DNA of 64,000 bases, from NCBI RefSeq assembly GCF_050320075.1, contig NZ_CP190018.1. One strand, 5' to 3'. The notes beneath the pieces are model-generated. The model was not told the origin of the DNA and searched no databases. It worked only from the letters and a program-made list of their open reading frames with translations. The translations under genes and the position numbers were made by a program. The DNA comes from Escherichia coli. GTDB lineage: Bacteria; Pseudomonadota; Gammaproteobacteria; Enterobacterales; Enterobacteriaceae. Every line of letters starts with the position of its first letter. Positions within the stretch are counted from its first letter, which is position 1. Shown here piece by piece: positions 1 through 63,136 of the stretch.

Positions 1-575
1 GAATTGATTTTAGAACTCGCAGGATTCGCGCTATTACTGGCCTTGTGTGATGTTGTATTGTTCCCTTCGCCCGCTCCAGAATCTCCCCAGGTGGAGAAGA
101 CTAAAAAAGTCTTCTCTGTCAGCAACTTAAACAGTTACCTATTTAATTTGCTTAGGAGTTCTACCATTGTGATCCGCCCTTAGTAACTGTCACGTTAAGT
201 TACACGGTGAGATGACAGTATAACCTAACGTTGGCGGCAGTTGCACCTCTCACACCGCGATAGCACAACGTGAAGATAAAGCCCATCCTGGCATTGTAAT
301 GTCATCGACAGACTGAACACACGCATTTAAGCCCGATGTGCGGCCTTGTGGCTGCGTAAACAGGTTTATGGTGATATTGGTCCTTGCAAACCATATGCAA
401 GCTCTATCAGCGTTTCAGCCACGCTCCCAACGGGTACACGGTTATCCTGATAAGGTGTGATCTTTCTGACAATCTGATGAAGTCGCTACGCTCCCGCTTG
501 TTGCTGTATCACCAACGGGGCTTTATGGTTTCTATTGTCTATAATAATCTCACAATTCCCCTGCATGAGGTTGAT

Positions 576-815: not shown

Positions 816-1136
816 TTACTTCTTAATATCGCCAGTGCATTGATATTCGATAGTCACAAGTGTTTGCATACAACCAGATGAAGAAGGTTGTGAACATTGA
901 GAAGTGAATCCACCAAAAGGCTCGGCTCCTGAATATCCCCAAGCGGCACAACGCGCTTTGGCTGCATTCATGCCTTGTTGTGGATCTACAACAGGGCTTT
1001 CAAACATACCGTAAGAATAACTCATCCTAACTGTGCCGTCTGATTTGCTTCCACCAGTTGGAACGAGTTGTTTTTTTGTTGCACATCCAGAAATAATCAA
1101 TGTTGAAGCAAGTAACAGCATTAAACTTTTGCGCAT
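816..1136 (-). CDS. Lipoprotein, possibly YecR-like
   Basis: Signal peptide plus lipobox LIISGC near the N-terminus. Four further Cys in the mature part. The GGSKSDGTV / WGY / FGG pattern resembles my recollection of the YecR family. Confidence 0.75.
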   Translation of the reverse strand: MRKSLMLLLASTLIISGCATKKQLVPTGGSKSDGTVRMSYSYGMFESPVVDPQQGMNAAKARCAAWGYSGAEPFGGFTSQCSQPSSSGCMQTLVTIEYQCTGDIKK

Positions 1137-1571: not shown

Positions 1572-1788
1572 TTAATTTTCTTTTAAAAACAATATGTTGC
1601 AATTTGTTGGATTTTTGGGTTAGGTTGTTTTTTGAACGTTTCCATCAAGTGTAAAGATACGTTTAGCCTTCATAGTGAGTTCAGTTACTGTCTTTTTATC
1701 TGAAATCGGCGCAAACGTGATCATCGCTTAACGAGAAGATCAGCGCCGTCAGGTCCACGCGGCGACAACTCTGAAATATCAGGAGGCA

Positions 1789-2346
1789 TTACGCTTCCTG
1801 CTCTTTCTTGATACGTTGCACCGTCTGTGTGCTGACACTGAAATCTTTTGCTACGCTCCGAATTGATCCACCATTCGCGAGAGCGGCAGCAATTCCTGCT
1901 CGATCAATTGCTTTTCCATTACCACGTTTTGCTATACGTCCAGCGGCCTTAGCTGCGGCGATCCCTTCACGTTGACGCTCAAGCATCATTTCACGTTCCA
2001 TTTGTGCCACTGCTGCAAGCACTGTGAGCATCATATTCCCTGCGGGAGAGTTCTTCCCTGTCTTAAAGTCTTCTTTATGGAAATGCACAGACACGCCGCG
2101 CTCTGTTAATTGCTCAACCGTTGCCAGTAGGTCGGCTGTATTACGGCAAAGTCGATCAATGCTGTGAACATGCAAAACATCACCTTCCCGCACATAGTTC
2201 ATCATTGCCTCAAACTGTGGGCGCTGGGTATTTTTGCCTGACGCTTTATCTTCAAAGACTTTATCAAGAGTTACTCCAGCTAATTGACGGTCTGTGTTTT
2301 GTTGGACAGTCGATACCCTAATGTATCCAATATTAGCCATTTTCAT
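1789..2346 (-). CDS. Serine recombinase (resolvase/invertase family) with C-terminal HTH
   Basis: N-terminal IGYIRVSTxxQ catalytic-serine motif, DRLCR motif and C-terminal HTH (IRSVAKDFSVSTQTVQRI). The second ATG at 2340 has better SD spacing. Confidence 0.9.
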   Translation of the reverse strand: MKMANIGYIRVSTVQQNTDRQLAGVTLDKVFEDKASGKNTQRPQFEAMMNYVREGDVLHVHSIDRLCRNTADLLATVEQLTERGVSVHFHKEDFKTGKNSPAGNMMLTVLAAVAQMEREMMLERQREGIAAAKAAGRIAKRGNGKAIDRAGIAAALANGGSIRSVAKDFSVSTQTVQRIKKEQEA

Positions 2347-2365
2347 TTTCCTTCTGTGTTGATTT

Positions 2366-2472
2366 GTGTGTAGTGATTATTGATCGTGTTGATTAGGTGT
2401 GTAAAGGACTTTTTTCACTACGAAATTCGAAGGTTTTTAGTGTGGTGATTTAGCCTGCTTTATCACTACACG
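2366..2472. promoter_or_regulatory. Recombinase upstream control region with inverted GTGTAGTGAT / ATCACTACAC arms and further CACTAC-like half sites. Possible res or operator site.
   Basis: 10 bp perfect inverted repeat at 2368-2377 and 2462-2471. Related motifs TTCACTAC and TAGTGTGGTGA lie in between. Confidence 0.3.
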
Positions 2473-3260
2473 TCTTGCATGAGAATCATGTAGTTACATT
2501 TTGGTAAAATTAGCAAGCTATTAAATAGTGTGTTTATTTTGAAAAAATAATTTTTTGTTGCATTAAAGGAAACTTGTTCAATAAATGATAGAACGTTTAT
2601 TGAGCAACAATTTTGCAGTGATGCGCTATATGCCGCATTACATAAGGCTTTGCTGATGATAATGTAAAAGTGAAGAAAGCTAACATTGCTCTTTTAAGCT
2701 ACTTTTCATTGAATTTTTAGTATGGAATTACATAGGGATAAACTATGAATATTCTATGATTTACACGAGATATTCTTGCTGTTTAATTCCGGCTTTGGAG
2801 ATCAGGCATTCGCAAGAATACGCTAACGCGTTGCCTGAAAAGCCATTGCACATAATAGAGGTGAGCGTATAGCGAACTATCAATGTGATCATTGCACGAA
2901 TGATAATGAGTGGATATAGATTCTATATATCGTTAGATTGTAGTTTGATAGTTAATGTGTAATGTAGATTGTATGAGCGTATAGCGAATGTTAGTTAGAT
3001 CAACAACAAACTAACCTTTAAATCTCTTTTATCTTCTCATAGATATGGCTATGCGTAGCAACCGAAGGTTAGCCAATCATCTCTATGCAGCCGTAAGGCT
3101 GTTTTGCATGTAATAGTTGTTTGTTGTTGTTAGACAGTTACCAATTTATAGATCAGAGATAGATGTGAGCGTTGAGCGATACACTAATCATAACAACATC
3201 TTCTTACTTTTTAGTTAGTTGTTAGTAGGTTATTGTTATGCGCGCTATTAGCGCATGTAT

Positions 3261-3371
3261 AAAGGTATCATTTTTATCTAAAGGGCTTTAGACATTTTTG
3301 ATACCTTTTTCATCTCTAAAAAAGTGTAATTTTTATCTAAAGGGGCTTTAGACATTTTTTACACCTTTTTC
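3261..3371. repeat. Two adjacent near-palindromes of about 48 bp, arranged as a 59 bp direct repeat. Each is centred on TCTAAAG-GG(G)-CTTTAGA.
   Basis: Palindrome cores at 3277-3292 and 3336-3352. Outer arms are AAAGGTATC/GATACCTTT and AAAGTGTAA/TTACACCTTT. Extra TCTAAAG half sites occur near 3411 and 3488. Confidence 0.7.
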
Positions 3372-3515
3372 TGTGCAAGACACTTACCAGTGTGCACAAT
3401 ACTTATGCTTTTCTAAAGCCGGGAATTTTTAAGTTTGATTGATCAATTGTTAACTTTAAAAGTTACTTTTAACAATCACTTAGACGATCTAAAGCCGCAA
3501 TTAACATAATATAAG

Positions 3516-3545
3516 TTGACATGCAAGCACTTTTTACCGTATAGT
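3516..3545 (+). promoter_or_regulatory. Near-consensus sigma70 promoter (TTGACA-18-TATAGT)
   Basis: Hexamers read directly at 3516-3521 and 3540-3545. AT-rich sequence lies upstream. Confidence 0.55.
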
Positions 3546-3551
3546 GCGGGT

Positions 3552-3605
3552 TTCCTACCTACCCAGGAAATGAGTTCCTACCTACCCAGGAAATGAGTTC
3601 CTACA
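3552..3605 (+). repeat. Tandem 23 bp repeat, about 2.3 copies, each unit a hairpin or operator (TTCCT-N8-AGGAA)
   Basis: TTCCTACCTACCCAGGAAATGAG at 3552-3574 is repeated exactly at 3575-3597, with a partial third copy at 3598-3605. The repeat starts at the predicted +1 of the 3516 promoter. Confidence 0.9.
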
Positions 3606-4556
3606 ATACTATAATTAAACTACAATTAAACTATCTTTTATAAATTCTTTTATCTTTTAAAGAATAATTATAGGGATACCCGTTAGGGAGTCTTCGACTA
3701 TCCCTTAATCTATTGGCATTCGCCAGAACCTTGCACAAGTTAGACTGATGCTTGTCATAACAGATAGTTTTTGTTTTTTGTTAGTAGTTAGCTGATCTAT
3801 GTTCGCTTTCCGCTCACAACGAATATGTAATCTACTATGTGCAAATAGCCTACGGCTTGCGTATGGCTAATAGTCTTGCGCTGTGCGCAGAACGATAATT
3901 AACTAACTACCATCTAACGATTGAAATTTACTTGTGCAATAACCTGAGCATAAGCGAATGGTTGTTAGTGTCTATGCGCTGTGCGCTTCAATAGTTCCAT
4001 TGATGAGGCTTACGCCAATCTAACGATCATCAATCTATTTAAGAGAAAATCTATTGTGCAATACTCTGACGAGTGCAATAACCTTGTGTGCTACGCGTTA
4101 GCGATGTTAGCACATAGACACAGACAACAACCAACAACAAACAAAAAAGAAAGAATGGTTTTAGTAGTTGAAGGTTAAATAAGTTTCTACCGCTTAAATC
4201 AAGCCGTAGGCGAGCTAAACGTATATAAGGTAGGGAAACACTTAGCGGTAATAGATTAGCTCGTTATAGAGCTTCTGAGGAGCTTTACAGGTATTTTATA
4301 AGATGTCTGAAATCAGAGTTTATCTATCCACCATCTTTCCATCATCTGATAAATCAAAAATAAGCCCCTTAAATAAGCCTCTGACGAGATAAACAACCTC
4401 TACATAAGGGAATGTATTGTTTTTATCAAAACCCCCGTCAGAGTGCGATTGAGAGCGTTTTAGACAACAGGGAAGAATTGTACCAGAGTAGGCAGCACAA
4501 AAAGCTAAGAAAAATTATAAGAAATTGAAAATGATCAAGTTTTTTATAAAAGAGGG

Positions 4557-4585
4557 TTGACAAAGCCGCCGTTATGTAGTATTGT
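4557..4585 (+). promoter_or_regulatory. Sigma70 promoter of the early operon (TTGACA-17-TATTGT) with an A/T-rich UP-like region
   Basis: Hexamers at 4557-4562 and 4580-4585. The first gene with a strong SD follows about 110 nt later. Confidence 0.6.
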
Positions 4586-4701
4586 AAGTAGGGAGGGGAG
4601 AAACATCTCTCTCCATCTAAATAATCAAATCACAGAACACTGCACTTTGAGCCGTCAGGCTGCAAGGTGTGTTTTTCTTTTATCTAAATAAGGAGTTTTT
4701 T

Positions 4702-4884
4702 ATGAAATGGTATACACCGGAACACGTCGTAGAGGCATTTAAAAAAGGTGAGCTAACACGACATCAAGTAAGGATGAACAGGAACACAGCGCGGCGCTGT
4801 GGTTATCCAGAGCGTGAAAAATGCTTTGACGATGCACTAAAAATTATTGATGAACTGCGTAAGGCAGAAGCAGAGAAAGAATAA
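4702..4884 (+). CDS. Hypothetical protein (60 aa)
   Basis: ATG at 4702 is preceded by AAGGAG. The track ORF start at 4669 is an upstream alternative codon without an SD. Confidence 0.6.
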   Translation: MKWYTPEHVVEAFKKGELTRHQVRMNRNTARRCGYPEREKCFDDALKIIDELRKAEAEKE

Positions 4885-4907
4885 TAACAGGAGAAGGAGA
4901 AAACCAA

Positions 4908-5084
4908 ATGAATATTAATTTTGATTCTGCAACTTATAACGCGTTGTTAAATCGTGCAAAGGCAGAAGGGAAATCAATTCCAAAACTTGTTAATGAATTA
5001 CTAATTACAGTCCTTACAAAGGAGGAACTAAATGAACCAAAACACCAAAACAATTGCCGAAGCAAAAGCGCAATGCCTCAATAA
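4908..5084 (+). CDS. Ribbon-helix-helix (CopG/Arc-like) DNA-binding protein (58 aa)
   Basis: Hand-translated: MNINFDSATYNALLNRAKAEGKSIPKLVNELL..., a beta-strand/helix/helix pattern. AGGAGAAGGAG lies upstream. The 3' end overlaps the next gene. Confidence 0.5.
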   Translation: MNINFDSATYNALLNRAKAEGKSIPKLVNELLITVLTKEELNEPKHQNNCRSKSAMPQ

Positions 5085-5697
5085 GAAAGATAGTAAACAA
5101 ACATATGTAGTAGTTGAACAATGGCTGAAGATGTTTAAAAAGTGGTTCTCACCGTCAGGTAAGGAATACACCGCGACACTTCCAGCCGTTGAAATCTACA
5201 GTTACGTAGCTGGGTTCAATGAACAAGGGCAAGAATGTTACGCCAATCAAAAAACATTAGCTAATATTGGAATGGTTAGTGATCGTCAGGTGCGTAATAT
5301 TATAAATATGTTTATTGATATGGGTGTTCTTTCTGTAGAGGCACGGGACGGGCAAACATCACTCTATAAAGCATTACCCTTTACAGATGCACACATCACA
5401 CCACCGGAAGACGTAAAAACCTCTGTAAACGTAGAACAGCCTGCACCTGAAACACAGGAACCGTTAGAAGCGACACACTCTATTGAGCAGGAAACACAGG
5501 CAGAAATCACGGAACAATCTGATCTTTTTACATGGCTTATTTCCATAGACAGCCAAAAGCCTATGCAAGAAGAAACAGAAAATTTTATAAAACGTGCACT
5601 GACCTCGAAGAGGATAATTCTTGAAGATGATGCTTTTAATGCACTGATGATAGCCCTGAGAAAAGAAAGTGAAATCTATGACTCAATACCATTTTAA
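5032..5697 (+). CDS. Winged-helix protein resembling RepA_N/DnaD-type replication initiators, with an acidic C-terminal half
   Basis: Strong SD AAGGAGG. The segment LPAVEIYSYVAGF...ECYANQKTLANIGMVSDRQVRNIINMFIDMGVLSVEARDGQTSLY fits the initiator wHTH pattern as I recall it. Confidence 0.7.
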   Translation: MNQNTKTIAEAKAQCLNKKDSKQTYVVVEQWLKMFKKWFSPSGKEYTATLPAVEIYSYVAGFNEQGQECYANQKTLANIGMVSDRQVRNIINMFIDMGVLSVEARDGQTSLYKALPFTDAHITPPEDVKTSVNVEQPAPETQEPLEATHSIEQETQAEITEQSDLFTWLISIDSQKPMQEETENFIKRALTSKRIILEDDAFNALMIALRKESEIYDSIPF

Positions 5698-5709
5698 GGA
5701 GAATAAAAA

Positions 5710-5967
5710 ATGAAATACAACCTGACATTAAACAAACGAACATTCGAAATTACAGAAAGCGGCTACACACTGGCAAAACAGCTTGCTGATAGCAATTATG
5801 AGCTACCCGCGATTATCAGCTTTCAGGAGTTACCTCATAGTAAAGAACACACACAGCACTGGTTAAATCACCTGAGCCATTTTGGGGTAATTAAGTATGA
5901 GGCTGTGAATAGTCAGACGTTCCGTTTGCTTGAGATAAGCCCTTTCGAATTGTGGGTGGCGCTGTGA
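5710..5967 (+). CDS. Hypothetical protein (85 aa), possibly winged-helix
   Basis: ORF with SD, lying in the operon. Confidence 0.65.
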   Translation: MKYNLTLNKRTFEITESGYTLAKQLADSNYELPAIISFQELPHSKEHTQHWLNHLSHFGVIKYEAVNSQTFRLLEISPFELWVAL

Positions 5968-6170
5968 CCATATTCGATAGCGAATTTTCACAAGAAACCT
6001 TTCTGCAATATTTACGGGAAAGAACGGGAATGATTCTGTTTGATTCTGAGTTTTCCGGTGTGGTAGGTGAGCAATTTTTATATGCTCTTCTCGATAGCCT
6101 AAGTAAACAAGGATTATTGCAGTATACCAAAACTCATATGAAAGCATTCAGAATCGACTCTGTAGCTTAA
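5964..6170 (+). CDS. Hypothetical protein (about 68 aa) with an internal tandem (I/L)FDSEFS repeat
   Basis: GTG at 5964 overlaps the upstream stop as GTGA, suggesting translational coupling. The track ORF begins at 5952. Confidence 0.55.
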   Translation: MTIFDSEFSQETFLQYLRERTGMILFDSEFSGVVGEQFLYALLDSLSKQGLLQYTKTHMKAFRIDSVA

Positions 6171-6206
6171 AACAAACAACTATCAAACATCTTGAAGGGT
6201 GAAACA

Positions 6207-6347
6207 ATGGAAAGCTTAATATTTTTCTTAGTATTTATGATCGCTTCCTTTTTTAACACTGCAACAAGAAAAACAAAACGAAGGGGAAGCAATGAGCAAG
6301 AAAAAAGGCAAGAAAAACGTAATAACAACTATTGGCGAAGCATGTGA
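6207..6347 (+). CDS. Possible small membrane peptide (46 aa, MESLIFFLVFMIASFF... with a basic tail)
   Basis: Hand-translated. Weak SD AAGGG. Overlaps the next gene out of frame. Confidence 0.2.
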   Translation: MESLIFFLVFMIASFFNTATRKTKRRGSNEQEKRQEKRNNNYWRSM

Positions 6348-6672
6348 TCAGTATGCGTTAAACAATCCTCGCAAATATAATTATGAGCATGATGCACAAC
6401 CAGGCGAGGAATTGATCTTTATACTTGAAGAACCAAGCCCAGAATTAACAGACGAAGAATTATCACTCATTCAAAGTATGGACGGTGTTTACTTTAATCC
6501 GCGCCCACGCAAAACAACGGTTATAGATTCCAGTCTTCTGAAAAGATGGCAGTGTTTGGGTTTTCAGGATATGCACCACTTTAGGGGGTATATGGCTCTT
6601 AACAGTCTGCAATATGCAGGGGTGAGAGAAACCGAATTACTTCTGCTTGATAAAATAAAAATCGACGATTAA
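6292..6672 (+). CDS. Hypothetical protein (126 aa), basic N-terminus
   Basis: ORF with SD (AAGGGGA). No motif recognised. Confidence 0.7.
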   Translation: MSKKKGKKNVITTIGEACDQYALNNPRKYNYEHDAQPGEELIFILEEPSPELTDEELSLIQSMDGVYFNPRPRKTTVIDSSLLKRWQCLGFQDMHHFRGYMALNSLQYAGVRETELLLLDKIKIDD

Positions 6673-6713
6673 CAGCGTTTGCTGAATATAACCCTTAACA
6701 AAAGGAAAATAAA

Positions 6714-6935
6714 ATGATTAACAAAGCAATTTTAGAGACAACCACTTTTCACGATCTTAAACTTCTTTCTGAATGCTTCATAAGCCTGATTGAACGTGCA
6801 CAGGAAGAAAACGATCTCGGTTTACTCGATGATATTATAGACAACATTGCAACTTATAAAATCCCGCTCACTATTGCTATGAAGAAAGCTCGTGAAGCAC
6901 AACAACAATTAGAACAATCAGAGGAAGTGGCATAA
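6714..6935 (+). CDS. Hypothetical acidic helical protein (73 aa)
   Basis: ORF with SD. The stop overlaps the next start as TAATG. Confidence 0.7.
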   Translation: MINKAILETTTFHDLKLLSECFISLIERAQEENDLGLLDDIIDNIATYKIPLTIAMKKAREAQQQLEQSEEVA

Positions 6936-7243
6936 TGAGCGAAGTACACAACGTAACTATTGAAATGATGGATCTGGTTATTGATTTACAGAAAGCAGTA
7001 AACGCGGCTCTGACTTTTCCAAGCGAGCTAACCATCACACAGGCGGTTATTAATCTGGAATCGACGCGGGAAGCACTGCAACTACTTATTGCAGCGTGCG
7101 AAGAGAGCGAAGGTGCACAGATTGAAGCTGATGACCTTTCTAATCTGATCATCGTCATTCATGACACCACTGAAATCATGAAAGAAGCGGTAGCAGATCT
7201 GCAACCCCTCATTAATGAATTAATCGATAAGGCTAACAACTAA
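6935..7243 (+). CDS. Hypothetical strongly acidic helical protein (102 aa)
   Basis: By my count about 19 D/E against 4 K/R. TAATG overlaps at both ends. Confidence 0.7.
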   Translation: MSEVHNVTIEMMDLVIDLQKAVNAALTFPSELTITQAVINLESTREALQLLIAACEESEGAQIEADDLSNLIIVIHDTTEIMKEAVADLQPLINELIDKANN

Positions 7244-7452
7244 TGTCAAAAACTAAACGTGTGCGCCTTCTGGCGCTCACAGAAGAAGGGAAAGCGGGTA
7301 ATTGTTTCACAGTAGGTAAAGTGTATACCGGCTTACTCGACACTTACACCCGCCTGATGCACGTAACCGATGATAACGGTAACGATCAAACAATCGTTTT
7401 AGATGGTAATTGCGTATTTGGTGAGTGGGAACTGACAACCGAAAAAAGTTGA
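7243..7452 (+). CDS. Hypothetical protein (69 aa)
   Basis: Translationally coupled ORF and the last gene of the early operon. Confidence 0.7.
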   Translation: MSKTKRVRLLALTEEGKAGNCFTVGKVYTGLLDTYTRLMHVTDDNGNDQTIVLDGNCVFGEWELTTEKS

Positions 7453-7471
7453 AAATAATTGCATTTACCTA

Positions 7472-7500
7472 TTGACTTTTACTAACAGAAATGTTAGAAT
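7472..7500 (+). promoter_or_regulatory. Sigma70-like promoter (TTGACT-17-TAGAAT)
   Basis: Hexamers at 7472-7477 and 7495-7500, 20 nt after the early-operon stop. Confidence 0.5.
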
Positions 7501-7506
7501 AATAAA

Positions 7507-7749
7507 TGTTGGGTTTGGAATCGAAAATAGGTGTTAGCTGGCGTTAATCCTTCTCCCGATTCTAATCCTACACGAAAGCGGGGTAGACCTCAAGGGGTCG
7601 CGCCCTATCTAACCTATCCCGCTTTCCCTTTACAGTGATTTTTTAGAAATTGTTTCCCTCGTTAATAGTTTCATTTTATTTTCCTTATTGCTTTATCAAA
7701 ATTGTGTCTTAAGAATGCAGGGGCTACGGATTTGGCCCCTCATCTTTTT
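7507..7749 (+). ncRNA. Candidate structured leader or ncRNA 1
   Basis: No ORF longer than 20 codons. A 13 bp stem (7574-7586 with 7614-7626) encloses the AGGG-gtcgcg-CCCT hairpin. Ends at the terminator-like hairpin at 7719-7749. Confidence 0.3.
7719..7749 (+). terminator. Intrinsic terminator-like hairpin (AGGGGC...GCCCCT followed by T5)
   Basis: 6 bp GC stem at 7719-7724 and 7735-7740, with a T-run at 7745-7749. Confidence 0.5.
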
Positions 7750-7869
7750 AACCAACTGCGAAGCATGAAACACTTTCTAAAAACACTGTTTACAGTGTCT
7801 ATAAACCCCGTATAAACAAATAACGGTGTATATCTGTTTCTTGACAACAGTTTTCTACTAAGCTTAAAG

Positions 7870-8290
7870 CTGAATATGTTTTTGTTTGTTGGTGTTTATT
7901 AAGGTGCCAATCTTAGAACGCGAAAGCGTGGATGATCCCCGAAATCATCTCGGCACCGCCTCCTATTAAAATGAGAATCCAAAAGGTTTGAAAGTTAATA
8001 GGTGATTCCTGAAAGTCTGATCGATGCATCCACATTGTGAAAGACAGCGATTAGCCGTCGCACGAATAACAGGTTTATAGATTCCTCTCCAAAGGGGGCG
8101 ACCTCCTAAGCGCCTACTCCCTGTAAGCCTGTTATTCACCCCTCAAGGGTATATAACAATAAGCAATCTTATTCTTATATGTCCTCCTCTTTAAGTTCAT
8201 ATAAACTGCGATTTAGTAACACTCTATAACATCCTTCAAATGTTGTATTCATAAAGCCGGAAGCTTTCCCCTTCCGGTTTTATTTTTATC
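7870..8290 (+). ncRNA. Candidate long structured RNA 2 (about 420 nt). The 5' end is uncertain.
   Basis: A possible promoter is TTGACA at 7841-7846 with a weak -10 TTAAAG. A three-way junction is formed by GGTGCC 7903-7908 with GGCACC 7952-7957, the GNRA hairpin ACGC-GAAA-GCGT at 7918-7929, and GATGAT/ATCATC at 7931-7949. An 8 bp stem pairs 7962-7969 with 7995-8002, and a 10 bp stem pairs 8064-8073 with 8128-8137. A strong terminator sits at 8253-8290. No ORF longer than 20 codons. Confidence 0.4.
8253..8290 (+). terminator. Intrinsic terminator (CCGGAAG-ctttccc-CTTCCGG followed by a T-rich tail)
   Basis: 7 bp GC-rich stem extended by A-U/G-U pairs, then TTTTATTTTTAT. It lies about 40 nt before the first head-module gene. 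Confidence 0.7.
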
Positions 8291-8330
8291 AGCACTAAAC
8301 AAGACTGTTAGGAATAAAGGTAAAGCAATA

Positions 8331-8546
8331 ATGCAAAATCTCATTCTAAAGAATGGTAACGAAGAATTGGTTATCACTGATGAAACATTCAATGCTACGG
8401 CTTATATGCTGGGGATCACTCCCACAGAATTGAAAAAACATTGTGATAAGCTTTTTAAGTCTGCTGATGAACAGAAACCTACTATGCAGGATCTGATTAA
8501 AGCAAAAGCAGAACAAATCAAACAATCCAAAAAAGGAAACTATTAA
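8331..8546 (+). CDS. Hypothetical protein (71 aa), first gene of the head module
   Basis: ORF with SD. No motif recognised. Confidence 0.7.
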   Translation: MQNLILKNGNEELVITDETFNATAYMLGITPTELKKHCDKLFKSADEQKPTMQDLIKAKAEQIKQSKKGNY

Positions 8547-8548
8547 TT

Positions 8549-8920
8549 ATGGCTATTATTAATATGAGCGATCTGTTTCCAGTTCGCAAATCATTTACCG
8601 ATATCGTTTCATATGCAACTGATGAGTTCGGTTGTGTGCAATCTTTTACCGTTGATCTGGCGGTTGATGTTGAATGCGGCGATCTGATTACCAGTGACGG
8701 CGCTGAATATGTAAGCGGCGGCGATGTTCTTGTAGTTGTGTCTGATGCGGTATCCGCTGGCGACGCTAAAACCGTTAACGTGCTGCGTAGCAATGCCGGA
8801 CTGGTTTGCATCAAGTCCGATGCTCTGAATGTTGAAGGCGCTGTGAAAGAAGCTGCTATTGCTGCCCTGGCTGCAAAAGGTTTCCAGATGGCTGGTTTTA
8901 ACACTGTATTCACATCTTAA
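8549..8920 (+). CDS. Head decoration / capsid-cement-like protein (gpD / DUF2190-like)
   Basis: 123 aa, Gly/Ala/Val-rich beta-type protein immediately upstream of the capsid gene. The size, position and G..V......G.....V pattern are typical of decoration proteins. The assignment rests on pattern, not on an alignment. Confidence 0.6.
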   Translation: MAIINMSDLFPVRKSFTDIVSYATDEFGCVQSFTVDLAVDVECGDLITSDGAEYVSGGDVLVVVSDAVSAGDAKTVNVLRSNAGLVCIKSDALNVEGAVKEAAIAALAAKGFQMAGFNTVFTS

Positions 8921-8938
8921 TATAAAGGAATAAAAATA

Positions 8939-9967
8939 ATGATTATTGGTAATGAATCCGTCGATCTGGCTCCGCTGTTTAGTCTGCACGACTCTCGCAA
9001 CTTCCTGTTAACTTCTCTCGACTTTACTGATCCGGTAGGTGTGAGTTCTCATAAAGTGGCTGTTAGCCAACTGGTGGAAACTAACGAATCTCTGTTCAAC
9101 AAAGAAACCTCTCGTTTCTCTTCTGAACATAACGTGACTAAACGTGAACAGGGTAAAGAATTTTTAGTAGAGATCCCCTACTTCCTGCGTGAAGATATGA
9201 TTAAGCCGCAAGACGTGCAAGGCAAACGTAAACCAGGCGCTACCGTTGAAGAAACTCTGACAGATATCTACGCGGAATATGTTGCTAAGCACCACATTGC
9301 TTTCCAGCGTACTAAAGAAAGCGTGCTGGCTGCTTCCCTGTTCTCTGGTCGCACTTACACCCCTAAAACTGATGATGTGCTGATCCAGTGGGGCGATCTG
9401 TTTAGTGTTGTTCCGATGACTGCAACCATCGACGCATCAAGCACCACGCCTTCTATGGTGTTCCAGCAATTCGATCAGATGCATACAGACGTTATTACTA
9501 AAGCACAAAGCCAGGCGGCTGCTGTAGAACGTATCGTTGTATTCTGTAAACCTGCTGCTTTCAACGCTATCCGTTACAGTGCTGGCATGGTTAACGCGTT
9601 CCAGTATGCAAGCCCTACCGATGACGCAAACATCGTTTATAGCGTGCGCTCCCTGCTGCCAGGTGTGACTACCTTCACTATTCCTGGGACTAACATCGAT
9701 ATCGTTAAAGTTACTGATCCGCTGCTGCTGGCTCATATGACTTCTGATGCGGTTGCTGTTCCGAAGTTCGCTAAAGGCTCTAACGTCTATCAGAACATTT
9801 TCAGCGCTCCTTCTTCAACGTTCGACCTGCTGAATTCTGGCGCGGCTGAATATTACAGCTATGCGTTTAGCCCAGCACGTAACGACGCTGTAAACGTAGT
9901 TACTGAGAATAGCCAGATGGTTGTAAACCACGGCGTAGGCTTCACTGTACAGATCACAGTAGCGTAA
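8939..9967 (+). CDS. Major capsid protein, lambda gpE-like family
   Basis: 342 aa, close to the size I recall for gpE (about 341 aa). The IKPQDVQGKRKPG segment resembles the conserved P.D.QG.R..G region of the capsid E family. It follows a decoration-like gene as in lambda D-E. Confidence 0.75.
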   Translation: MIIGNESVDLAPLFSLHDSRNFLLTSLDFTDPVGVSSHKVAVSQLVETNESLFNKETSRFSSEHNVTKREQGKEFLVEIPYFLREDMIKPQDVQGKRKPGATVEETLTDIYAEYVAKHHIAFQRTKESVLAASLFSGRTYTPKTDDVLIQWGDLFSVVPMTATIDASSTTPSMVFQQFDQMHTDVITKAQSQAAAVERIVVFCKPAAFNAIRYSAGMVNAFQYASPTDDANIVYSVRSLLPGVTTFTIPGTNIDIVKVTDPLLLAHMTSDAVAVPKFAKGSNVYQNIFSAPSSTFDLLNSGAAEYYSYAFSPARNDAVNVVTENSQMVVNHGVGFTVQITVA

Positions 9968-10017
9968 TAAAGCGTTAATAGTCGTTTCCTGTGCGACTGG
10001 AAATAAAACAGGCAATA

Positions 10018-10081
10018 AGGGCAAAAGGGATTATTAAACCTGTAGCGCAAATACAGTAAACAATCTCTTTTGCCCTTTTTT
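10018..10081 (+). terminator. Long-stem terminator-like structure after the capsid gene
   Basis: AGGGCAAAAG at 10018-10027 pairs with CTTTTGCCCT at 10067-10076, followed by T5. An inner hairpin lies at 10040-10056. Confidence 0.45.
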
Positions 10082-10120
10082 CGTTTATACCGTCTATTAA
10101 AATATTGTGAGAGAAAAATC

Positions 10121-10312
10121 ATGAGCGAACAAAACAACAATCCAGTTGAGATCCTGAAAGCTGTTTCCACCTTACCGGAAGATATTCTGAATATCTCTCA
10201 AGTGTGTAAGTTTTTAGGGATCTCTAATACTGCTGTACGTCAAAGAATCTTCACTACTGGCTGCTCAGCTATGGAAGCAGTGCAATACTACGTAACAAAA
10301 CAAAACAAATAA
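10121..10312 (+). CDS. Small HTH DNA-binding protein (63 aa). Could be an excisionase/AlpA-like or small-terminase-like recognition protein.
   Basis: The ISQVCKFLGISNTAVRQRI helix-turn-helix. The track ORF start at 10070 lies inside the terminator, so the ATG at 10121 is preferred. Confidence 0.6.
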   Translation: MSEQNNNPVEILKAVSTLPEDILNISQVCKFLGISNTAVRQRIFTTGCSAMEAVQYYVTKQNK

Positions 10313-10330
10313 AAGGTAAAGGAAAATATT

Positions 10331-12172
10331 ATGGATTTAAACATCTCAACCTTAACAAACAAGGTTGTATTTAAAGTTGATTTTGCATCATTACAGAAAG
10401 CAAGGGACGCAGGGAAGAAATTTCAGAAAGAAATGGAAAACCTAACCAATCCAACATTGAAAGGGAAGAAGGCTAAACGAGCTATAGACGAGGCTCATGA
10501 TCTGGTAAAGGCTCGTAAAGCTGCACAGGCTAAAACTGATGCCAAAGCGTCAGACAAGCAAGCTCAAACCGATAAGAAGAACGCTGATAAGGTGGCAAAG
10601 GCAGAAGCTAAAGCGAAGGCTAAAGCCGCTATAGCTGCCGATAAACAGATCCGCGCTAAAGCGACAATAGCAGAGAAAGCAGAGATTAAGCGCCAGCAAG
10701 CTTTCAGACAGCTTGAAGGGATTAAGAAAGGGCGTATGGGCGACGGTATGGACTCCGCCCAATACTACAAAACGTTGCAATACATCAAAGCACAAACGGC
10801 AGCGTATGAGAAAGGCGCTATTAGTCAGGCTAAGATGAATCACCTGATCCGTGATCGTATCACGTTAGAACGCCGTGCGGCTGCTGTAAAAGCTCGCCAG
10901 GTGGCGGCTGATGGCGGTAAATATCCACATATGGCTAAACAGCTTAAAGGCGGTCATATAGGCGGTGGTGTAGGTGCAATGGTGGGCGGTGCCGCTCTCA
11001 CTGCTGCCACTCTCGGCGGTGCTGCGATATTCAATACCGTAACCGATCAGGCAAGCAAGATCACAGACACTAACCGCAAGGCAAAGGCTGTCAACGTAAA
11101 CACTAACGCCCTGTTAGCACTTAATCAGTACGGCTTAGAACACGGTGTCGATAGTTCCGTAGACCAACGTCAAGACAACCTTAAAGACGTTCAAGAGCGT
11201 TTAGGTGAATCCGTAGGGAATACCAAATGGGACGCTAAGAAAGGTCGCTGGGCTGGCGGTAATGGTGCCGTCGATAACATCCTTAATAAATATGGTTGGA
11301 GTCCTGAACAGATTAAAGGTTTCCAGACTGATCCATTAGGTTTCCTGGGCGCTGTAGTGAAAGAAGGAGAACGCCGTGGACTCTCTGATCAGGAGCAGGG
11401 TCACATCCTTGAAGACCTTGGAAATGATTTACAATATTTCCGTGGTGCTTTCAGTCGTAACGGTGAAGAGCTAAATAAAACCATCGTTAAGATGCAAAAA
11501 GCCAATGCCACCTATGCGCAAGCGGATCTTGACGCTGCTGAACGTCTGCAAGCTGTACAGGCTAATATGAATATGGCCTGGGAAGGTAGTAAGAAAGCTA
11601 TCATGACGGGATTCGGTGAAGAGTTCGACGCTCAGGCTGGTGAAGAGTGGGCGCAAATGTTGAAAGATCTCAATCCTCTGTTTAAAGAACTTGGAAGCTC
11701 AACGGCTGAAATGATGAGCGCCTTTGCTGGTGCTGTATCGTGGCTTACTGCTGCATACCAGAATATAAATCCAGAGAACAAACATGAAAACCTTGATTCG
11801 TCCGGTATGTATTATAAGGATTCGTTTGTAGGCGGCATGGTTGATTGGGGTCGTAGTGCTTTAGGCTTATCGCCTATCCCTGGCACGGAAGACAAGCCAA
11901 CGACTGGCGGAACTGCAATTCAGAACTATTCAAGCCCGTCCGATAACGTGCAATCCCTGAAAGAGAACGTTAGCCGTGATCTGAACACTACCCCATCTAT
12001 GACGTATGCGCCAAGCATTGTCGTAAACGTGCCAGAAAGTAAGGTTGATGTGAATATCGCTCCTGATGGTAGTCAGCTTGGATCATACCTCGATTACAAA
12101 GTGGGAAGTATCCAACAAGATTTTGAACGTAGTTTCACGTTGGCGGCTCTGTCTGGGCAAGCACCAAGTTAA
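10331..12172 (+). CDS. Large structural protein, tape-measure-like (Lys/Ala coiled coil plus glycine-zipper hydrophobic segment)
   Basis: 613 aa. The N-terminal KAEAKAKAKAA-type repeats and GGHIGGGVGAMVGGAALTAATLGGAAIF are typical of tape-measure or DNA-pilot proteins. Confidence 0.6.
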   Translation: MDLNISTLTNKVVFKVDFASLQKARDAGKKFQKEMENLTNPTLKGKKAKRAIDEAHDLVKARKAAQAKTDAKASDKQAQTDKKNADKVAKAEAKAKAKAAIAADKQIRAKATIAEKAEIKRQQAFRQLEGIKKGRMGDGMDSAQYYKTLQYIKAQTAAYEKGAISQAKMNHLIRDRITLERRAAAVKARQVAADGGKYPHMAKQLKGGHIGGGVGAMVGGAALTAATLGGAAIFNTVTDQASKITDTNRKAKAVNVNTNALLALNQYGLEHGVDSSVDQRQDNLKDVQERLGESVGNTKWDAKKGRWAGGNGAVDNILNKYGWSPEQIKGFQTDPLGFLGAVVKEGERRGLSDQEQGHILEDLGNDLQYFRGAFSRNGEELNKTIVKMQKANATYAQADLDAAERLQAVQANMNMAWEGSKKAIMTGFGEEFDAQAGEEWAQMLKDLNPLFKELGSSTAEMMSAFAGAVSWLTAAYQNINPENKHENLDSSGMYYKDSFVGGMVDWGRSALGLSPIPGTEDKPTTGGTAIQNYSSPSDNVQSLKENVSRDLNTTPSMTYAPSIVVNVPESKVDVNIAPDGSQLGSYLDYKVGSIQQDFERSFTLAALSGQAPS

Positions 12173-12230
12173 TGATAAAGAGAATGTTTAATCACCATTT
12201 AAAACACTCTTATAAGGAATTAAGCATATA

Positions 12231-12257
12231 AGAGGCTCCCATTACAAGGAAGCCTCT
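12231..12257. terminator. Hairpin between convergent genes (AGAGGCT...AGCCTCT)
   Basis: 7 bp stem followed by TTATT. It sits between the stop at 12172 and the integrase stop at 12280. Confidence 0.45.
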
Positions 12258-12279
12258 TTATTGCGCCTATGGCGTTGTT

Positions 12280-13455
12280 TTAAGCCTTAAAATCAATATT
12301 TAATTCATATCTTACTAATTCTACATATTCAGCTAATTCTGGAATGCTTGCCCCTTGTGAGTAGGTGCGAAAGGCTTCTGTTTTAGCTCTCTGCTCTGTA
12401 TGTCCGGTAATGGCACCGATCCGCTGTTCAGGCACTCCGGCACGATCAAGACAAGTGATAAACATCCCGCGCAAGCTGTGAAAGCATTGTCTATTTGTAG
12501 CGATTGGCAAGACGCTACGACGTAAACGTGAGAACGCTTGAGAATAGAACGGGCCTTTCTTACCGTCGATTCTTTTTACTTTGTTCGAGTGAGGGAACAA
12601 ATATTCACCATAATTATGATTTAAATATTCATCGACAATAATCGATAGTCTCGAATGTATCGGAACGTGCCTGATCCCTGCTTTAGTCTTACTTTTGCTG
12701 ATATAAAAACAGCGTATTCCTTCCACAGTTACAACCTCTGACTTTTTCAGACTTGCCAGTTCGTCTAATCTGCATCCTGAAAACAAGCCCATTAAAATAA
12801 TATTTCTGATCTCCGGCTCCGCTGCATCAAGTAGCTTTTGCATTTGTTCAGGTGTAAACGGTTGATAACTCTCGATTGTGCGACGTGCTTCGAGATTATG
12901 ACCGTGAAAAGGGTTACTGTCTGGTATTCCGTCATAACGGCGTTTAGCAAATTCATAGAGCGATCCTAAGCATGTAAGCCAGTTTTGACGAGATTGATCG
13001 GCTGCTCCTCGTTGCTTCTGGTCATCTAAGAATACTGTTACAAGCCGTCTGCCTATTTTCTCAATATGAATATCATCTTTCTGAATGCTTTGTAAAAATA
13101 GCTCAACGGCCCTTGCTGATTTCTGTAGTGTTGAGTATGAACGACGCTCTCTGTAGCATTCGGCGTATTCGTCACGTATTAAGCATAGGGAAGGCGATGC
13201 ATAACCGCGTTTTACGGCTCTTTGCGTGTTTTTATTGGCCCTTGCCTCTGAATGTAAGGATTCAATAGCTTGTTGTAACCTCCTTTCGGGGTTATCAGGA
13301 TTATGTTTCCGCTTTAGTTCCTCCCATTCTAATAATAGATGGTTTCTGAATCTTCTCGCCTCATTCAGATCTCGTGTAGATGTGCTTTTTCTCCACAACT
13401 TGTAAGGGTAAAGATGACGTAAGTATTTAGGAACAAAAATCGGTGATGCTGCCAA
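12280..13455 (-). CDS. int: Tyrosine recombinase/integrase, 5'-truncated. The first about 5 codons of the open frame are IS1 end sequence.
   Basis: The C-terminal catalytic motifs HSLRG, GH and RTY are present. The N-terminal arm motif (VPKYL...KSTSTRDLNEARRF) begins abruptly. The ORF start (TTG at 13453-13455) lies inside the IS1 IRL, which begins at 13442. Confidence 0.85.
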   Translation of the reverse strand: MAASPIFVPKYLRHLYPYKLWRKSTSTRDLNEARRFRNHLLLEWEELKRKHNPDNPERRLQQAIESLHSEARANKNTQRAVKRGYASPSLCLIRDEYAECYRERRSYSTLQKSARAVELFLQSIQKDDIHIEKIGRRLVTVFLDDQKQRGAADQSRQNWLTCLGSLYEFAKRRYDGIPDSNPFHGHNLEARRTIESYQPFTPEQMQKLLDAAEPEIRNIILMGLFSGCRLDELASLKKSEVVTVEGIRCFYISKSKTKAGIRHVPIHSRLSIIVDEYLNHNYGEYLFPHSNKVKRIDGKKGPFYSQAFSRLRRSVLPIATNRQCFHSLRGMFITCLDRAGVPEQRIGAITGHTEQRAKTEAFRTYSQGASIPELAEYVELVRYELNIDFKA

Positions 13456-13496
13456 CTTACTGATTTAGTGTATGATGGTGTTTTTGAGGTGCTCCA

Positions 13497-13772
13497 GTGG
13501 CTTCTGTTTCTATCAGCTGTCCCTCCTGTTCAGCTACTGACGGGGTGGTGCGTAACGGCAAAAGCACCGCCGGACATCAGCGCTATCTCTGCTCTCACTG
13601 CCGTAAAACATGGCAACTGCAGTTCACTTACACCGCTTCTCAACCCGGTACGCACCAGAAAATCATTGATATGGCCATGAATGGCGTTGGATGCCGGGCA
13701 ACCGCCCGCATTATGGGCGTTGGCCTCAACACGATTTTCCGCCATTTAAAAAACTCAGGCCGCAGTCGGTAA
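13497..13772 (+). CDS. insA: IS1 InsA
   Basis: 91 aa, [40 protein letters not shown]..., recognised. Confidence 0.95.
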
Positions 13773-14194
13773 CCTCGCGCATACAGCCGGGCAGTGACGT
13801 CATCGTCTGCGCGGAAATGGACGAACAGTGGGGATACGTCGGGGCTAAATCGCGCCAGCGCTGGCTGTTTTACGCGTATGACAGGCTCCGGAAGACGGTT
13901 GTTGCGCACGTATTCGGTGAACGCACTATGGCGACGCTGGGGCGTCTTATGAGCCTGCTGTCACCCTTTGACGTGGTGATATGGATGACGGATGGCTGGC
14001 CGCTGTATGAATCCCGCCTGAAGGGAAAGCTGCACGTAATCAGCAAGCGATATACGCAGCGAATTGAGCGGCATAACCTGAATCTGAGGCAGCACCTGGC
14101 ACGGCTGGGACGGAAGTCGCTGTCGTTCTCAAAATCGGTGGAGCTGCATGACAAAGTCATCGGGCATTATCTGAACATAAAACACTATCAATAA
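13691..14194 (+). CDS. insB: IS1 InsB' frame, expressed as the InsAB' transposase by -1 frameshifting
   Basis: 167 aa frame overlapping insA. The slippery TTAAAAAAC motif lies at 13746-13754. Confidence 0.9.
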
Positions 14195-14478
14195 GTTGGA
14201 GTCATTACCCTTTGGCTATGAATAATTCTGATTTGACGAATCCAGAGGACTTATAGATCACTGTCTCCGGTTTAATAACTTGAATATAATCTAATTCTAA
14301 TATTTTAAACGCCTAATGATTTTTCAACACGGGTGTTATTCTGCTTACGCAAAAATTTTATTTTTAATTATATTTCATTATTATTTCATCAATGTATTCT
14401 TTGGATTTTGCTTATAATAATAATGGAAGGGATGATTATAAATGAATGCGTTATTGCATTTACACTCAGGATGAATAT

Positions 14479-62840: not shown

Positions 62841-62917
<77 letters not shown>

Positions 62918-62949
62918 TCACCGTACTGCTTTATTTCATCAAATTTGAT

Positions 62950-63026
<77 letters not shown>

Positions 63027-63059
63027 TCACCGTACTGCTTTACTTCATCAAATTTTAAT

Positions 63060-63136
<77 letters not shown>

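Follow-up and report, generated by a model that had tools for sequence, protein, structure and literature searches.

A candidate family of phage satellites in Enterobacterales that carries its own head shell and tail core genes

A virion gene cassette on a small mobile element

We analyzed a 64,000-nt stretch of Escherichia coli DNA (contig NZ_CP190018.1 of assembly GCF_050320075.1; the whole stretch is referred to below as the window), in which a short cassette of virion genes belongs to a discrete mobile element of 12.3–14.3 kb. Judging from gene content and homology, this element probably represents a new satellite family, which would build small heads and a tail core of its own and be packaged by the terminase of a helper phage. 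Full-text literature searches retrieved no published description of the family; their coverage of journals was incomplete, and an earlier description is possible.

The first ~24 kb of the window form a low-GC island region beside ETT2 remnants, and positions 4000–13500 are 100% identical to strain YZLc1-3. The cassette consists of five co-oriented open reading frames (ORFs), located at 8331–8546 (71 aa), 8549–8920 (123 aa), 8939–9967 (342 aa), 10121–10312 (63 aa, with a further possible TTG start at 10070) and 10331–12172 (613 aa). An earlier note on this DNA, made from the letters alone (the original prediction), had recognized the same five genes, and both our ORF calls and the RefSeq annotation of the identical strain, in which one of them is named major capsid protein and the other four hypothetical protein, agree with it. 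The ribosome-binding sites, described there as strong Shine-Dalgarno sequences, are of the AAGG/AAAGG type and only moderate. The module had also been termed 'head-only' and devoid of a packaging and tail gene set. Genes for portal, terminase, scaffold, sheath and tube are indeed missing, but the term is a misnomer, because the largest gene encodes a tail protein. The module is better described as 'head shell plus tail core', with many relatives adding a tube initiator gene beside the one encoding the tape-measure protein (TMP).

Head proteins

The product of 8939–9967 (plus strand) is an HK97-fold major capsid protein (MCP). It matched the Pfam family Phage_cap_E with 43.6 bits (cut-off 22.9) as well as PHROG 29, and it is 24–26% identical over its full length to MCPs of the Stephanstirmvirinae phages. 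A profile of its family, compared with the PDB, matched phi92 gp124 end to end (residues 3–342, E 6.7e-20) and also the MCPs of PhiTE and Sf14. The fold of phi92 gp124 is canonical HK97 (PMC13450770). These full-length profile and solved-fold matches place the protein among the HK97-fold MCPs (Phage_cap_E / lambda gpE-like), in line with the gpE-like capsid protein proposed at first.

Directly upstream, the ORF at 8549–8920 (plus strand) encodes a capsid decoration (cement) protein. Sequence comparison gave no match between this 123-aa protein and phi92 gp123, and the assignment was made by fold search only; it is the gpD-like (beta-tulip) fold, together with the place of the gene next to that of the MCP, that groups it with the cement proteins, and the gpD-like decoration fold expected in the original prediction was thus recovered. 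The ratio of nonsynonymous to synonymous substitution rates (dN/dS) was 0.09–0.14 for the MCP and 0.15–0.17 for the cement protein, and such low values (0.09–0.17) indicate that both are working genes.

For the 71-aa protein (8331–8546, plus strand), which stands at the place of the phage scaffold gene, no Pfam or PHROG match was obtained and no function is assigned. It has a conserved C-terminal basic helix motif, common to 57 distinct positional homologues. Homology to the phage scaffold was considered and is not claimed: the likeness to the scaffold C-terminus is seen by eye only, and a hidden Markov model of the motif failed to retrieve the scaffold among 4711 phage ORFs.

Tail proteins

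The 613-aa protein (10331–12172, plus strand) is, by homology, a genuine myophage TMP with both termini conserved. It matched PHROG 16051 (2.1e-64) and PDB chain 21vq_V, which is phi92 gp134 (1.3e-46); in BLASTP, its residues 216–613 aligned with residues 252–657 of gp134 at 28% identity (E 2e-49). An N-terminal motif and a C-terminal ...LTL..SGQ motif are common to the element and phage TMPs, and the middle part is diverged. The C-terminus of gp134 has been resolved, docked inside the baseplate (PMC13450770). The protein therefore groups with the myophage TMPs, including the hub-docking C-terminal end. Its residues 36–200 are rich in Lys (17%) and Ala (22%), and a glycine zipper is formed by residues of about 205–233; both features had been pointed out in the original prediction, which left the choice between a TMP, a DNA-pilot protein of tailless phages and a scaffold. 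The pilot and scaffold readings are rejected because of the full-length homology to the myophage TMP gp134 with both its termini, and the TMP reading stands.

The 63-aa protein (10121–10312, plus strand) is a member of the tail cassette with a possible helix-turn-helix (HTH) at residues 23–44. The HTH call made at first stands on sub-threshold Pfam matches alone (E 0.07–0.09). Positional homologues of the protein are present in all relatives examined, and no similarity to phi92 gp133 was found. When the window was compared with a circular form of the element, the two were 91% identical over 5742–10137 and diverged exactly where the 63-aa gene begins. This break at 10137 indicates that the head cassette and the tail cassette are swapped independently of each other, with the 63-aa gene following the TMP gene. 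Nothing supports a small-terminase-like role of the 63-aa protein; judging from homology to phage termini, packaging specificity sits more plausibly in a DNA site at 1726–1781 (see below).

In phi92, gp135 forms the hexameric initiator of the tail tube (PMC13450770). Many relatives of the element carry such a tube initiator (Dit-like) next to the TMP gene, up to 78% identical to gp135; the window copy has none.

Further virion genes were sought by tblastn, with 22 phi92 structural proteins (large terminase to gp140) as queries, in the window as well as in 33 related loci that included flanks of 10 kb. Only the MCP (21–24% identity), the TMP (26–41%) and gp135 (37–78%) were found, and portal, terminase, scaffold, adaptor, sheath, tube and hub were absent from all of these loci. 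Over the family as a whole, with more than 100 loci, a gene for portal, terminase, scaffold, sheath or tube was found in none. The original prediction had allowed that profile and structure searches might return non-virion functions, or that relatives might carry a portal, terminase and protease; the searches gave virion functions, and no relative has any of the three.

Relationship to Stephanstirmvirinae phages

The TMP, MCP and packaging-site searches in phages were made against 50,697 phage records. The TMP matched 134 of them and the capsid protein 263. For both proteins, the Escherichia, Klebsiella and related matches are the same 142–161 kb genomes of the Stephanstirmvirinae type; the MCP alone also matched 137 Pseudomonas phage records. 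When two complete phage genomes, VEcB (Justusliebigvirus) and 536P1 (Phapecoctavirus), were compared locally with the window, a 167-bp segment of the latter (4894–5060) was 95% identical at the DNA level to a small early gene of Justusliebigvirus, a gene that occurs in just two of the 50,697 records (VEcB and PaulScherrer/Bas60, where it is bas60_0101). The start of the TMP gene of one relative is likewise 85% DNA-identical to that of the phage over 87 bp. Exchange as recent as this implies that the elements encounter these phages inside shared host cells.

The phi92 virion module (gp122–gp135) contains homologous cement–MCP and TMP–tube-initiator pairs in the same order as in the element, and the two also have in common a motif at the boundary of the phage direct terminal repeat (DTR) and several small genes. 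In the phage, unlike in the element, the pairs are separated and surrounded by ~20 other structural genes. Its head is T=13 and its genome 148.6 kb (PMC13450770), and the element MCP is 21–26% identical to that of the phage. On these homologies, the likely helpers are virulent 150-kb Stephanstirmvirinae (phi92/Justusliebigvirus and phAPEC8/Phapecoctavirus types), not the prophages that the original prediction had in mind. Since the likely helpers are virulent, co-occurring helper prophages are not to be expected.

A site resembling the phage genome terminus

A candidate packaging or terminase-cleavage site, GCTTAACGnGA-N37-AAATATCA, lies at 1726–1781 (plus strand), directly 3' of a small recombinase gene, and was recognized as a 56-bp match to the DTR boundary of the phages, where their genome physically ends. 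A single copy, unchanged in its relative position, is present in each of the E. coli variants, in an E. coli plasmid form (L046), and in the Buttiauxella, Pseudenterobacter and Citrobacter sp. elements; further variants of it occur in metagenome copies. The phage genomes also carry it once. The phi92 genome has 343-bp direct terminal repeats (annotated DTR 1–343), and its site, at 290–346, extends across the annotated end of the left repeat at 343. For phage WPEC4 we measured a DTR of 328 bp, with its last base inside the GCGTT|AAGC core of the site. The 91-bp site segment of the window matched 64 of the 50,697 phage records, all of them phAPEC8-like (Phapecoctavirus-type), and in records that keep the physical ends the match is found within about 350 bp of both ends. 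The site of the window is of the phAPEC8 type (23/24 in the core), and E. coli elements inserted in a LysR-family gene carry the phi92 type, identical at 40 of 40 nt. We read the site as a candidate mimic of the terminase cleavage or recognition site.

Integrated and circular forms of the element

In E. coli strain H3 (NZ_CP010167), the element comprises 13.56 kb and is bounded by a 22-bp direct repeat, which is the 3' end of the tRNA-Gly(CCC) gene glyU. Copies in other hosts are inserted in tRNA-Gly in K. pneumoniae (13.9 kb, 24-bp repeat), in tRNA-Leu in C. freundii (14.3 kb, 41-bp repeat) and inside a LysR-family gene in another E. coli lineage (12.3 kb, 52-bp repeat). Five more copies bounded by attachment (att) repeats were found in metagenome contigs (13.05–13.99 kb). 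The element sizes are tight, ranging from 12.3 to 14.3 kb with a mean of 13.6 kb (sd 0.5, n=10).

An att remnant, TTCCCTTCGCCCGCTCCA, at 61–78 (plus strand) marks the left boundary of the window copy, as determined by alignment to the glyU 3' end and to strain H3. Bases 1–60 are part of a different island, which in the window strain fills the same tRNA-Gly site, glyU, upstream of the element (window 1–60, L001 1–4060); at the junction with it no tRNA-Gly is left, just the 18-bp remnant. Near the right end lies a tyrosine integrase gene (12280–13455, minus strand; Pfam Phage_integrase), 5'-truncated by an IS1 copy that adjoins it at ~13460–14260, so that 391 aa remain vs. 406 aa in strain H3. 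Lost to the IS1 are codons 1–15 of the integrase gene, attR and a neighbouring part of the ETT2 type III secretion island that strain H3 still has, and no second att copy is present in the window. With attR and the start of the integrase lost to IS1, the window copy is probably unable to excise.

A circular relative was found in E. coli GCA_032660145.1 (contig 61; L045). The contig has 13,683 bp with an exact terminal overlap of 111 bp, which gives a circle of 13,572 bp; it is without an integrase, its TMP gene is split over the contig ends, and it encodes a 495-aa DEAD/DEAH helicase. Its head cassette is 97–98% identical to that of the window at the protein level, and its tail cassette is of another type, including a tube initiator and, beside the cassette, a gene for T4 Imm-like superinfection immunity (Imm_superinfect). 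Similarly, ParA is present and the large integrase absent in a 14.1-kb contig from Pantoea. In the C. freundii locus (L007, 15544–21032), a P4-like satellite with integrase, AlpA, DUF5375 and primase stands in tandem with the element at the same tRNA-Leu site.

Distribution and conservation of the family

The capsid and cement proteins were found in E. coli (several variants), E. albertii, Klebsiella, Citrobacter, Enterobacter, Cronobacter, Kluyvera, Pluralibacter, Buttiauxella, Scandinavium, Pseudenterobacter, Dryocola, Serratia, Pantoea and Winslowiella; all carriers are Enterobacterales. Megablast matches to the family occur in 564 of 5426 complete E. coli genomes, always on the chromosome, and 54 E. 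coli genomes carry the variant of the window. No complete E. coli genome has the family on a plasmid, and it was not found among the PLSDB plasmids.

The order of genes is kept throughout. The minus-strand small recombinase gene is followed by an ORF-poor region of ~1.1–2 kb, the early/replication genes with the core protein p126, a terminator, and the genes for the ~70-aa protein, cement and capsid; behind a second terminator stand those for the ~63-aa protein, the TMP and often a Dit-like protein, and then the integrase gene. The same minimal set, with the same order and size, is maintained in at least 10 genera at a protein identity of 40–97% and dN/dS of 0.1–0.2.

Proposed mode of life and alternative explanations

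The element has the general marks of a satellite, namely att repeats, an integrase or a plasmid form, a replication-initiator-like protein or a helicase, and only three to four virion genes. According to our proposal, it would stay silent in the host, its head and tail cassettes lying behind intrinsic terminators, which were observed in front of both. Upon infection by a helper, it would excise or replicate by means of its own integrase and initiator. Its capsid and cement proteins, perhaps with the 71-aa protein as a small scaffold, would then build a small shell of the T=3/T=4 class on the portal and assembly factors of the helper, a step that we infer from genome size and gene content. The helper terminase would recognize and cut at the 56-bp site, whose homology and position are observed. 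Finally, the TMP, often together with the tube initiator, would seed tails made from the helper's hub, tube, sheath and fibres through its helper-compatible ends; the tail proteins of the element may also disturb tail assembly or DNA delivery of the helper. Of the capsid swapping or size redirection suggested in the original prediction, we found a conserved, selected and incomplete virion module with shell proteins of its own on a small mobile island, and the redirection of size is inferred only.

We give about even chances to the more specific proposal that the elements form an undescribed satellite class of virulent 150-kb coliphages, in which the element's MCP and cement and its TMP and tube initiator replace those of the helper, and portal, terminase, tube, sheath and baseplate are taken from it. 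Packaging would go through the mimic of the DTR site, integrative and plasmid forms would be interchangeable, and the cassettes would be shuffled independently.

Several points weigh against a packaged satellite. Only the right DTR boundary of the phages is copied, and the left one has no counterpart in the elements. The site was not detected in the elements of K. pneumoniae, C. freundii and Pantoea, and its third type (Citrobacter, Buttiauxella, Pseudenterobacter) has no phage match. None of the metagenome contigs of element size is circular; they end in chromosomal flanks. No small-capsid particle was found, nor any virome-derived copy in the metagenomes, and the IMG/VR matches are prophage-style calls from isolate genomes. 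When the capacity of phi92 is scaled by T^1.5, a T=3 shell would hold ~16.5 kb and a T=4 shell ~25 kb, so that the class of shell is uncertain for a genome of 13.5 kb, which would under-fill the larger one. As the MCP is just 21–26% identical to those of the helpers, its co-assembly with helper portal, scaffold and protease is uncertain as well. Finally, the proposal does not account for a private TMP, which might interfere with the tail assembly of the helper, provide a tail that fits the small head, or allow escape from injection blocks; the Imm_superinfect gene beside the tail cassette of one relative points to the last of these.

The same virion genes could serve an anti-phage defence island, whose diverged MCP, cement, TMP and tube initiator would act as dominant-negative decoys poisoning Stephanstirmvirinae assembly, the element itself remaining unpackaged. 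The confinement of the homologues to one phage group speaks for this, as do the conserved ends and divergent middle of the TMP, which would permit its incorporation into helper tails, and the presence of an Imm_superinfect gene in one relative. Blocking of tail assembly is also known for satellites and islands (Tai systems, PMC11364771). Yet a decoy would need neither cement nor a full-length conserved MCP, and the phage-terminus site, the replication module and the tight size would be superfluous to it; no PADLOC matches were obtained, and interference can coexist with satellite transfer. We therefore hold a purely defensive island to be unlikely.

Decay offers another reading, in which the element is what remains of a prophage or phage-plasmid that once had the full virion set; the damage by IS1 to the window copy and the many genes called hypothetical by annotation pipelines would agree with it. 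It is very improbable in view of the same gene set, order and size in at least 10 genera with 40–97% protein identity and dN/dS of 0.1–0.2. In addition, att sites are intact in other copies, not one of the 33 loci has kept a portal or terminase, and the related phages are virulent, with no known lysogeny. Least probable of all, in our view, is an autonomous minimal virus, or a producer of particles like those of gene transfer agents, that does without a helper. The element does have its own capsid, cement and TMP as well as replication and integration functions, but no ORF is large or similar enough to encode a portal, terminase, tube, sheath, baseplate or lysis protein, and a TMP is functionless without a tail tube.

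Comparison with known satellites

The phage-inducible chromosomal islands of the capsid-forming kind (cf-PICIs) of Enterobacteriaceae, whose helpers are temperate phages, are likewise small integrative satellites that form capsids from an HK97-type MCP of their own and take other virion parts from the helper. They encode portal, protease/scaffold, head–tail adaptors and the small and large terminase subunits (TerS/TerL), and tail genes are 'forbidden' in their SatelliteFinder model (PMC10085698). In contrast, the head genes of the element comprise MCP and cement only, both the window and its 33 relatives lacking portal, terminase and adaptor genes, and tail-core genes are added to them.

The PICI-like element (PLE) of Vibrio cholerae is an island of similar size class and also a parasite of a large virulent myophage, ICP1. 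ICP1 has a T=13 head; PLE forms small capsids with the help of an external scaffold, TcaP, and uses the packaging machinery of the helper. To our knowledge, few satellites of strictly lytic phages have been described, and PLE/ICP1, found in Vibrio only, is the paradigm. The small capsids of PLE are made from the ICP1 coat protein (PMC12846349). Unlike the element, PLE encodes neither an MCP nor a cement protein or TMP; the two have no sequence relationship, and the PLE markers are Vibrio-specific.

Resemblance to P4 (helper P2) and the Staphylococcus aureus pathogenicity islands (SaPIs; helper 80alpha) lies in their 11–15 kb genomes and possibly in their helper-matched packaging site; in the element, the candidate for such a signal is the 56-bp homology to the helper DTR boundary, of which the left one is not copied. 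P4 encodes a decoration protein, Psu, and CpmB of the SaPIs is an internal scaffold of ~72 aa. In its size and its place the latter resembles the 71-aa protein, although similarity of the 71-aa protein to the phage scaffold was not significant when tested. Both P4 and the SaPIs differ in that they lack genes for an MCP and a TMP and redirect the coat protein of the helper. The core of P4-like satellites consists of integrase, Psu, delta, Sid, AlpA, epsilon and the alpha primase (PMC10085698); Pfam and PHROG scans of the element proteins gave the integrase only, with no primase and no Psu or Sid. The PICI core consists of integrase, an AlpA/Stl regulator, a primase-replicase, a capsid-morphogenesis gene and TerS, with tail genes forbidden (PMC10085698); no TerS or primase match was obtained for the element proteins in these scans, and a tail gene (TMP) is present. 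The element thus resembles the cf-PICIs most in having its own MCP and PLE most in its likely helper, a virulent myophage, and in the proposed small heads with a T=13 helper, and its combination of shell and tail-core genes without portal or terminase fits neither. Current satellite finders would reject these elements, because their PICI and cf-PICI models count tail genes as forbidden.

If the satellite reading is right, E. coli would gain a tractable model of lytic-phage satellites in a family that ~10% of its genomes contain and that also occurs in Klebsiella, Enterobacter and Citrobacter. We know of no earlier case of a satellite with a tape measure of its own, and shell and tail-core proteins alone would solve the capsid-size problem in a new way. 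The phAPEC8-, phi92- and Klebsiella phi92-like phages, which are the putative helpers, have broad host ranges and are being developed for therapy, and a resident satellite could cut the yield of a therapy phage or carry genes between clinical strains. The 56-bp terminus motif also offers a candidate, open to experimental test, for the site at which Stephanstirmvirinae DNA is packaged or cleaved.

Other features of the element

The left end of the element (384–1448) carries cargo that differs between relatives. In the window it comprises a 132-aa ORF (plus strand), a gene for a YecR-like lipoprotein (816–1136, minus strand; Pfam YecR, 1.8e-23) and a 55-aa ORF (minus strand). No PADLOC defence matches were found in the element.

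The small recombinase (1789–2346, minus strand; 185 aa) is a serine recombinase of the resolvase/invertase family (Pfam Resolvase, 1e-38), 28% identical to a phage invertase. The serine type is found in E. coli, and in the Klebsiella, Citrobacter and Pantoea relatives a tyrosine recombinase of 185–205 aa stands in its place.

Behind it lies an ORF-poor, repeat-rich region of 2.3 kb with 35% GC (2347–4668), which has a counterpart of ~1.1–2 kb in every relative. It contains many short hairpins and long-range imperfect inverted repeats (e.g., 2821–2954 vs. 3896–4103), a near-consensus promoter at 3516–3545 followed by an exact 23-bp tandem repeat (3552–3597), and another promoter at 4557–4585. 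Its part 2782–3547 is 82% identical to the plasmid form L045, and no k-mers of the region are conserved across genera. The region may be an origin, a regulatory region, an invertible switch or a large RNA. Neither phage DNA nor Rfam gave a match for the non-coding segments 2347–4700 and 7400–8400.

The early/replication block (4702–7452, plus strand) has nine small genes and was recognized from HTH_36 and PHROG replication-initiator matches, which fall on an HTH protein similar to replication initiators (5032–5697). A 58-aa ORF (4908–5084), unannotated and with no Pfam match, overlaps the start of this gene and looks ribbon-helix-helix-like by eye. The family-wide core protein p126 (6292–6672) is present in almost all loci with a dN/dS of 0.11, and no fold match was found for it. 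The last product, a 69-aa protein (7243–7452), is 42% identical to an ORF of Phapecoctavirus 536P1.

Directly upstream of the head genes, the intergenic region 7453–8330 (plus strand) is highly structured, with a promoter at 7472–7500, intrinsic terminators at 7719–7750 and 8251–8290, perfect stems of 13–17 bp and an RNA fold z-score of −9.1 vs. shuffled controls. In all relatives examined, a terminator precedes the head cassette by 40–60 nt and a second one precedes the tail cassette (in the window at about 10040–10090), which suggests that the two cassettes are controlled by antitermination or read-through. Three tRNA-Met(CAT) genes in tandem, on the minus strand at 62841–63136 of the window, are remote from the element and have no relation to it.

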